A stretch of 64,000 bases of DNA, from UHGV virus genome UHGV-0091736; one strand, given 5' to 3'. Shown here in pieces: positions 11,687 through 12,545 of this stretch. The number at the start of each line of letters is the position of its first letter. The stretch's first letter is position 1. The notes beneath the pieces are model-generated. The model saw nothing but the letters and a program-made list of their open reading frames with translations. It was not told where the DNA came from and searched no databases. A program made the position numbers and the translations under genes. The stretch is from a virus.

Positions 11687-11937
11687 GGTGAAGCTCCATC
11701 TGCTTGGTTGACGAGAGAAGCTGCATCCTCTCCGTTAGTTAAAACGAATGGATTATCTTCATCAACTTCAAAGTCTTCCCTTTCTACAAGTCTACCGGTT
11801 TCACTGATATACTTAGTATAACAGACACCTGTCTGACCGTAGTTACGTTCTTTCAGTAATCGAATGACTGAGAGGTTCTTAGCTAAGCCGTCAGCTTGCT
11901 TGTCACGCTCAAAGCCAATGATACACTGACACCACAA
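11680..11937 (-). CDS. primase-helicase 3' exon (C-terminal segment)
   Basis: [13 protein letters not shown]...[29 protein letters not shown] aligns to T7 gp4 [11 protein letters not shown]...[30 protein letters not shown]; no SD, TTG at ORF start. Confidence 0.7.
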
Positions 11938-12545
11938 AAGTTCAGATACAATCGCTACTTGTATCCCGCACCACTACATGCTGCTTACAGTTTCCTGCAA
12001 GATCGGACTATATCACCACACTATAGTGTGCCTACTGCTTCCATTTAAGTCAATGTTAATGACACCACTTGGCTGTACTTCGAGCTTACGCCCACCCTAG
12101 TCTCTGCACTTTCTAAACAGTCTTCCGTTTATAATTAAAGAAATTGTAACCTCTCTGAACATTCTCAGCGTTGGTTACCCACTCCAAATTAGATGCCACG
12201 TTATTGTCTCTTGTGTGGTCCAAGTGATCAATAAATGGGTAATTGTGGGGGTTAGGAACAAAGGCAATAGCTACTAATCGATGCATGTAGAATTTCTTTC
12301 TTTGTCCCGTATCCATTCTTAAGTAAACAGTTAAATATCCGTTGCCATGTCTGGCCCATAAGATAACATTGCCTGTTTTACTATTATAAATCGTACCATC
12401 AGGCCGCACCCAATAATTAGATGCACCTTCTATTTGTTTTTCTTCCATAAAGCCTCCTTGCTCTTGGAAGACTGTCTAGCTTAGCTCAGGATTGGCATAT
12501 CTTTCGACTTAGCTTTCCCTGAGTTCAATAGGTTTTACATGCGCA
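11926..12545 (-). mobile_element. putative group I-type intron splitting the primase-helicase gene; carries HNH ORF
   Basis: Homology to T7 gp4 is interrupted after FTGSRSLMRKQT and resumes at CIIGFER; about 620 nt insert with HNH ORF; 5' end shares conserved blocks with the polymerase insertion. Confidence 0.6.
12113..12448 (-). CDS. HNH homing endonuclease (intron-encoded)
   Basis: 111 aa; FIDHLDHTRDNNVASNLEWVTNAEN; SD AAGGAGG. Confidence 0.7.
   Translation of the reverse strand: MEEKQIEGASNYWVRPDGTIYNSKTGNVILWARHGNGYLTVYLRMDTGQRKKFYMHRLVAIAFVPNPHNYPFIDHLDHTRDNNVASNLEWVTNAENVQRGYNFFNYKRKTV

Follow-up and report, generated by a model that had tools for sequence, protein, structure and literature searches.

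In UHGV virus genome UHGV-0091736, of which a stretch of 64,000 nt was analyzed (hereafter the window), the primase/helicase gene is interrupted by an insert of 620 nt that is very probably a mobile IA-type phage group I intron, with P7.1 and P7.2 present, P2 absent, and an open reading frame (ORF) for an HNH endonuclease in the P6 loop. A preliminary description of this DNA, made from the sequence alone, had proposed a group I-like, HNH-carrying intron splitting a gp4-like primase-helicase, and this proposal is now borne out by colinearity with uninterrupted relatives, splice-site hallmarks, a ribozyme core, covariation, and the location of the ORF in P6. Genomes of phiEco32 and other members of Kuravirus (Gordonclarkvirinae) were 98% identical to the window across the primase/helicase region, and, as judged from its sequence, the window is a Kuravirus (phiEco32-like) genome, belonging to an Escherichia coli phage.

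The genes in this region lie all on the minus strand, with three ORFs in series: a 521-aa ORF with Toprim and DnaB_C domains (12525-14090), the 111-aa HNH_3 ORF (12113-12448) between the two helicase ORFs, and an 85-aa ORF in the exon-2 reading frame, starting at TTG (11680-11937). The primase/helicase gene runs uninterrupted over 1791 nt in phiEco32 and in about 97 of the 99 phage records that were matched. Pairwise BLAST showed window positions 14100-12555 to be colinear with positions 301-1846 of the phiEco32 locus, and 11934-11601 with 1847-2180; since both flanks abut without gap on phiEco32 (1846 then 1847), the insert is exactly 620 nt long (11935-12554, minus strand), and its boundary is unambiguous, as a shift of one base in either direction breaks the match. 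This exact colinearity with phiEco32 and about 97 relatives is the outcome of an alignment to uninterrupted homologues that the preliminary description had suggested as a check; the length that it gave for the insert stands, and its placement of the insert (11926-12545) was 9 nt off at each end.

Exon 1 (12555-14090) has 1536 nt and comprises codons 1-512, ending in ...SLMR (R512), being colinear with phiEco32 gp75 at 98.1% identity, and exon 2 (11680-11934) opens with WCQCIIGF (W513), comprises codons 513-596 and the stop, and is also colinear with phiEco32 (97.6% identity). With the insert deleted, the ORF has 1791 nt and 596 aa, of which two residues differ from phiEco32 gp75; the intron is in phase 0 and the protein junction is ...SLMR/WCQC..., the slash marking the junction. 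The nucleotide junction predicted after splicing reads ...CUUAUGCGU/UGGUGUCAG, and the insertion-site DNA of the intron-less phiEco32 reads TTATGCGT/TGGTGTCAG. The junction residues proposed earlier had to be corrected on both sides, since exon 1 ends in ...FTGSRSLMR, the residues KQT being intron read-through (KQTCACKTY followed by a UGA stop), and exon 2 resumes at WCQCIIGF and not at CIIGF.

As previously suggested, the gp4 alignment is continuous over both ORFs once the insert is removed. Indeed, the predicted spliced product matched the T7 gp4 chains 5IKN and 6N7I (E ~1e-31) over residues 117-571, with no break over the junction, and Pfam returned DnaB_C plus a weak Toprim_2 on the host protein, whose gene is classed by these matches as a T7 gp4-like bifunctional primase-helicase, with Toprim followed by a DnaB-like helicase domain. 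When the window junction (FTGSRSLMR/) was aligned to T7 gp4, the insertion site fell inside helicase motif H4, one residue from R522, which we take to be the T7 arginine finger of this motif. By analogy with T7 gp4, the primase/helicase would be the replicative helicase of the phage, and essential. Moreover, the exon-2 ORF has a single start, a TTG built of the last three intron bases; the TTG and the lack of a Shine-Dalgarno sequence upstream of it had been noted before, and exon 2 is also devoid of any in-frame ATG.

Regarding the RNA, the intron begins with AAACAAACC... and ends in ...GAACUUUUG (terminal G at 11935); with the boundary set by the phiEco32 comparison, the terminal base of the exon is U and that of the intron is G. 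Helices were parsed by hand and their complementarity was checked by script, whereby P1 and P3 to P9.2 were all found fully complementary in the window, and in canonical order. The 5' strand of P1 consists of the last six exon bases, ATGCGT (12560-12555), and the internal guide sequence GCGCAU (12539-12544, intron nt 11-16) pairs with the exon AUGCGU at six of six positions, the one at the splice site being U·G; the unconstrained minimum free energy (MFE) fold obtained with RNAfold contains an 8-bp P1 that includes this U·G pair. P3 is formed by CCUAUUG (12526-12532) and CAGUAGG (12031-12037), about 490 nt downstream, with 7/7 pairs. P4 (UCAGGG/UCCUGA, 6 pairs), the P5 hairpin with a GAAA loop, J4/5 and J5/4 occupy positions 12486-12522, a region in which positions 60-141 of the Rfam model were matched (E 2e-5). 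The 5' strand of P6, CUAGACAGUCUUCC (12466-12479), pairs with positions 12113-12126 in a 14-bp stem (14/14) from which the ORF is looped out, and the pair count of the whole P6 enclosing the ORF is 2 + 14.

In the 3' domain, P7 is formed by G, a bulged A, and GACUA (12098-12104), pairing with UAGUC-C at 12005-12010 (one pair, the bulge, and five pairs), and would be the guanosine-binding helix by analogy with other group I introns. Two hairpins lie between P7 and the 3' strand of P3, namely P7.1 (GGGC-GUAA-GCUC, 12082-12093, 4 pairs) and P7.2 (12041-12072, inner hairpin of 4 pairs, to which a 3-bp outer stem was added for the pair count reported below). The P8 hairpin CACAC-UAUA-GUGUG (12017-12030, 5 pairs) is directly followed by J8/7 (GUGAUA, 12011-12016), and further downstream are P9 (11984-12001, 7 pairs, GAAA loop), P9.1 (11968-11981, 4 pairs), and P9.2 (11945-11965, 7 pairs). 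No P2 helix was present among the hand-parsed helices of the window intron, and the absence of P2, together with a UAAAA joiner, was also seen in the related VTCCBPA_211 and C72C1 introns.

Across seven related introns, the parsed helices differ in sequence and are complementary except for two P9 pairs in CoeSc and one of the six hand-parsed P1 pairs, non-standard in LAMP, and P1 covaries with the exon in VTCCBPA_211 and C72C1. Compensatory changes in P3 were found in the seven relatives; in P7, the flanking pair changes in step from G-C to A-U and the remaining five pairs are invariant. Moreover, P7.1 presents a double compensatory change (GGGC/GCUC to GGUC/GACC) in L013 and O18-011, hairpins equivalent to P7.1 and P7.2 exist in LAMP, VTCCBPA_211, and C72C1, and changes on both sides were observed among relatives in six of the seven pairs of P9 and five of the seven of P9.2. 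As a MAFFT alignment of 12 whole intron cores (A1) was out of register in the peripheral helices, the hand parse and a separate 3'-domain alignment (eight sequences, 40 pairs) were used; in the latter, 85.7% of cells were paired, versus 31-40% in controls with partners slid by 1-3 columns, 20/40 pairs were changed on both sides, and none of 500 shuffles reached any observed measure. Unpaired cells were mostly in P7.2 and P8, because MAFFT misregisters distant sequences there. In addition, the unconstrained MFE fold of the natural 646-nt RNA, ORF included, recovered P1, P3, P4, P5, P6, P8, P9, and P9.2, and the ORF-deleted core had a folding z of -4.1. These data point to a P3-P8 core with a P4-P6 domain and a P3/P7 pseudoknot, supported by covariation. 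P7.1 and P7.2 serve as classification features of group I introns (PMC3984707), and here they indicate subgroup IA, with a putative phage IA2-like affinity.

The covariance-model search that had been suggested as another check agreed with these helices. A permissive Rfam scan of the full 64-kb window, on both strands and with 4227 families, gave a full-length match to RF00028 (model 1-253) at 11984-12604 on the minus strand, with 48.6 bits and E 2.7e-9, though below the curated cut-off of 50 bits; this match is not due to chance, because such an E-value was reached across the whole insert in a scan of the full window with all families. When only the region was scanned, two half-matches flanking the ORF were obtained (E 2e-5 and 4.5e-4), and the Rfam scan in gathering mode listed no match.

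The HNH ORF in the P6 loop (12113-12448, minus strand, 111 aa) is as delimited in the preliminary description, and its product matched Pfam HNH_3 (E 9e-9, 35.3 bits, cut-off 24.8) and PHROG 59 HNH (E 4e-31). The protein aligns to residues 1-99 of I-HmuI (PDB 1U3E; E 4e-12), with the DH...NN..NL...N motif conserved, and presents the catalytic D-H...N...N of HNH_3; its endonuclease activity and its target are predicted. A Shine-Dalgarno sequence (AAGGAGG, 12453-12459) lies 4 nt ahead of the AUG, within a small hairpin loop of the MFE fold, and the final 14 nt of the ORF, including the UAG stop, constitute the 3' strand of P6. Most homologues have 160-190 aa and carry NUMOD4 and PF22083 domains. 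When the insert was scanned for an internal promoter or terminator driving the HNH gene, signal counts were not above those of shuffled sequence.

Further evidence came from copies of the element at the same site. The 97%-identical cluster of the HNH protein (P0001) has 24 member sequences, with the 111-aa length kept, and the protein was found on at least 10 Logan/ENA metagenome contigs, always at the same insertion site. Compared with the window, these copies showed no differences in the 5' ribozyme part (0/91 nt), about 5% in the 3' ribozyme part, 11-12% in the HNH ORF, and 6-14% in the adjoining 35-36 nt of exon. Codon differences in the ORF were 31-33 synonymous and 3 nonsynonymous, by which count the ORF is under strong purifying selection. 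Changes in the 3' part included G·U to G-C and G-C to U-A in P7.1 and two double compensatory changes in P9.2, with those in P8 confined to the loop. Furthermore, a divergent phage contig (L017) carries at the same site a 65%-identical HNH of 124 aa, with P1 kept and the long P6 stem retained through three double changes, as read by eye, pair by pair, from the alignment. This pattern among natural copies speaks for a functional ribozyme as well as a functional ORF.

In two of the same-site copies, L012 (2937) and L014 (891), J8/7 reads GAGAUAGUC in place of GAUAUAGUC, a U-to-G change of a base that does not vary among the 12 introns of alignment A1. A pairing of the P6 5' strand CUUCC with the GGAAG of the start codon (AUGGAAG), instead of the GGAAG at the ORF end, was considered as a translation/splicing switch and rejected because L017 keeps AUGGAAG and has ...ACACC as the P6 strand, the pairing thus not being conserved. 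An intein was excluded by stops of the insert in the helicase frame, and an assembly artefact by the recurrence of the insert in independent assemblies.

According to the explanation that we propose, the primase/helicase gene would be transcribed as a single pre-mRNA and spliced in vivo, through a two-step self-splicing reaction initiated by GTP. The guide sequence GCGCAU would pair with the last exon bases AUGCGU, placing the U·G pair at the splice site, and a free guanosine held in P7 would attack after the splice-site U; the terminal intron G would next enter the guanosine site, and the exons would be ligated. Ligation would restore codons R512-W513 in motif H4 and the full 596-aa protein, which could be made from spliced RNA only; on unspliced RNA, translation would stop nine codons into the intron and yield only the 521-aa protein. 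Where co-infecting relatives carry the gene without the intron, the 111-aa HNH protein would presumably nick or cut it, and the ensuing repair would copy the intron in (homing).

Several points weigh against this explanation. The RF00028 score is 1.4 bits under the gathering threshold of 50, a shortfall that is expected because of the 340-nt ORF in P6 and the lack of P2. P10 is weak (about 3 bp, ACC/GGU, with a one-base offset), J8/7 has 6 nt in the hand parse versus 8 nt in the closest relatives, and splicing is something that we infer from the sequence. Finally, the HNH protein is devoid of the C-terminal DNA-binding module, helical and with a helix-turn-helix, that I-HmuI (residues ~100-174) and most of the homologues of 160-190 aa (PF22083) possess, and its site-specific activity is uncertain because this module is absent.

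Some of these features could also be read in other ways. A free-standing HNH gene might have split the helicase into pieces, each translated on its own and then reassembled with the other, as with fractured genes or the mobE-split nrdA of phage Aeh1; the HNH ORF does lie between two helicase ORFs, and separate genes are what gene callers, and the annotators of VTCCBPA_211, make of such pieces. This is nevertheless extremely improbable, considering that exon 2 has neither a Shine-Dalgarno sequence nor an in-frame ATG, its TTG consisting of intron bases, that the ~280 nt of non-coding insert fold as a complete group I core conserved more than the ORF, and that the break lies inside motif H4, in the middle of the fold. 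Another reading would see a decayed, splicing-defective relic, with the helicase truncated or a pseudogene, or else an intron whose splicing depends wholly on a protein cofactor. The Rfam score slightly under threshold, the absence of P2, the weak P10, and the short J8/7 would suit such a relic; yet the interrupted gene encodes what, by analogy with T7 gp4, would be an essential replicative helicase, the intron occurs in at least 10 independent contigs with its 5' ribozyme half invariant and compensatory changes in P7.1 and P9.2, and the design without P2 is common to the VTCCBPA_211 and C72C1 introns, all of which makes this reading very unlikely.

There is more to be said for a working ribozyme whose 111-aa HNH is a truncated, inactive remnant, the intron being immobile, since the protein ends at the equivalent of I-HmuI residue ~100-110, without the C-terminal DNA-binding domain, and most homologues are of 160-190 aa with NUMOD4 and PF22083. 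We consider it unlikely all the same, in view of the 31-33 synonymous against 3 nonsynonymous changes, the 111 aa kept in the 24-member cluster, the 65%-identical version of 124 aa at the same site in a divergent phage, the intact catalytic D-H...N...N, and the good Shine-Dalgarno sequence; the conserved short length and the purifying selection, in particular, argue that the protein is not a dead remnant. The mobile group I intron is accordingly the reading that we retain for the insert. A more speculative extension, and a doubtful one, is that the 111-aa HNH is a naturally minimized I-HmuI-type nickase, site-specific without the C-terminal domain, and that in this case these introns, of which Gordonclarkvirinae phages have four or more related sites in their replication genes and the present genome a further one in its terminase gene, might serve as weapons of interference between co-infecting kuraviruses; the cut would then fall in the motif-H4 coding sequence of the helicase gene of an intron-less rival. 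The intron endonuclease of ΦPA3 offers a parallel (PMC11620839).

The window intron has relatives in many phages, since in a DNA search of INPHARED short ribozyme-core segments matched split genes, including the DNA polymerase of the kuravirus-like phages LAMP, KBNP1711, and KarlSchell, and terminase, ribonucleotide reductase small-subunit, tape-measure, major-head, and DNA-polymerase genes of Vibrio, Aeromonas, and other phages. The 25-nt P4-P5 segment of the window intron, AAAGCUAAGUCGAAAGAUAUGCCAA, recurs unchanged in those of LAMP, KBNP1711, and VTCCBPA_211. The ORF-less DNA polymerase intron of LAMP scored 100.8 bits with RF00028, and its record annotates the gene as a two-piece join. The DNA polymerase introns of LAMP-type phages, which belong to the same phage subfamily, share with the window intron the P4-P5 segment and identical P7 and J8/7 motifs, a P9 with one base different, the order P3-P9.2 with P7.1 and P7.2, and the P6 loop as the place of any ORF. 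They differ in host gene and site, in having a P2 hairpin, in the sequences of P1, P3, P6, P7.1, P7.2, P8, and P9.x, and in an endonuclease ORF unrelated in DNA.

The VTCCBPA_211 intron, in turn, is in the same gene, lacks P2, has the UAAAA joiner between P1 and P3 and the identical P4-P5 segment, and bears an HNH ORF in P6. It differs in its site, ~290 nt upstream (...NFG/QNEW), in its guide sequence and peripheral helices, and in a larger HNH ORF (176 aa by the annotated CDS span). In VTCCBPA_211 (L002, PP989838), the intron is at ~1560-2297, and the GenBank pieces are named "DNA directed DNA polymerase," "hypothetical protein," and "helicase." An ENA contig (NODE_35, 76953 bp; L013) holds an intron at the NFG/QNEW site (1083-1866) plus the window's intron in the same gene.

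In Escherichia phage O18-011 (L003, NC_070985), an intron-like element with an HNH gene (2102-2939) lies between the stop codon of the primase/helicase and a new ATG of the DNA polymerase exonuclease gene. Its 3' half is 84% identical to the window intron, and it is followed by a 43-nt helicase-coding copy (GGACAGG...CTCTTA) that ends 5 nt before the insertion site of the window intron. This element may be an ectopic copy of an intron with a home site ~48 nt upstream, plus part of its 3' exon. With respect to the exon flanks in the window, the 40 nt at 12555-12594 have 3 differences from phiEco32 (7.5%) and those at 11895-11934 have 2 (5%), the whole gene being at ~2%; the three upstream variants are also present in the intron-less allele of O18-011, and therefore they did not come from the intron donors seen in metagenome contigs.

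Among known systems, the SPO1 DNA-polymerase intron with I-HmuI (PDB 1U3E) is similar in that a replication gene of a phage holds a group I intron with an HNH enzyme of conserved motif. I-HmuI is a nickase. It differs from the present protein in size (174 aa vs 111 aa) and in its C-terminal helices and helix-turn-helix, absent here, and the host gene and host bacterium are also different. The related I-PfoP3I is likewise a nickase (PMC3428280). Phage ribozymes of IA type have been described with an ORF looped from a peripheral stem, at conserved sites of DNA-metabolism genes, and as mobile by homing (PMC3984707). In this context, the IA-type introns of T4 td, nrdB, and nrdD (IA2), and the T7-like DNA-polymerase introns of K1F gp5.3 (PMC4925675) and Pf-WMP3 I-PfoP3I (PMC3428280), also with a looped ORF, resemble the window intron, whereas they had no detectable DNA similarity to it in the searches run, and their targets are polymerase and nucleotide-metabolism genes instead of a gp4-like primase/helicase.

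Elsewhere in the window, a second group I intron of 774 nt (40691-41464, plus strand) was located in the terminase large-subunit gene, after ...WLDEED, with 45 bits and E 3e-8 for RF00028. The terminase exons are at 40088-40690 and 41465-42403, and an HNH-like ORF is at 40878-41456; the exon ends in T and the intron in G, and removal of the intron gives a 513-aa terminase large subunit colinear with that of phage EK5. The upstream exon is 88.6% identical to EK5 versus 98.8% for the downstream one, and this low identity may represent a co-conversion tract from homing. A tRNA-Arg(TCT) gene was also present at 27782-27858 on the minus strand (ARAGORN; 60 bits with the Rfam tRNA model). Among the other phages, four consecutive RF00028 matches (50-74 bits) were found in the tape-measure gene of Vibrio phage vB_CoeS_P1 (L010, 622-1808) and three (75-90 bits) in the terminase region of Vibrio phage 1.187.O (L007, 329-1694); in both places, ORF-less group I introns appear to be crowded to an unusual degree.

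Among the GenBank phages of INPHARED (August 2025), no record had this intron at the H4 site and the HNH ORF was without a DNA match, IMG/VR viral contigs gave 0 matches to the exact 44-nt exon-intron junction pattern, and literature searches on introns of Kuravirus, phiEco32, and LAMP and on primase-helicase group I introns turned up neither a report of this element nor a paper on introns in primase/helicase genes of Kuravirus. Group I introns that bear HNH genes and sit in phage replication genes are a classic theme (PMC3984707, PMC3428280, PMC4925675, PMC11878797); the element is thus a known kind of selfish phage element at a new insertion site, which would not surprise a specialist and alters no general principle.

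In brief, with respect to annotation, the 521-aa and 85-aa helicase ORFs and the HNH ORF should become one spliced 596-aa primase/helicase and an intron-encoded endonuclease, and related GenBank genomes such as VTCCBPA_211 are mis-annotated in the same manner. The compact 111-aa HNH, provided that it is active, would hold interest for the engineering of nickases and for work on competition between phages. Furthermore, our data add the motif-H4 site to those of a group I intron family whose members appear to hop among essential genes of phiEco32-like phages, namely the DNA polymerase, the terminase, and the primase/helicase (two sites, and possibly a third suggested solely by the O18-011 remnant).

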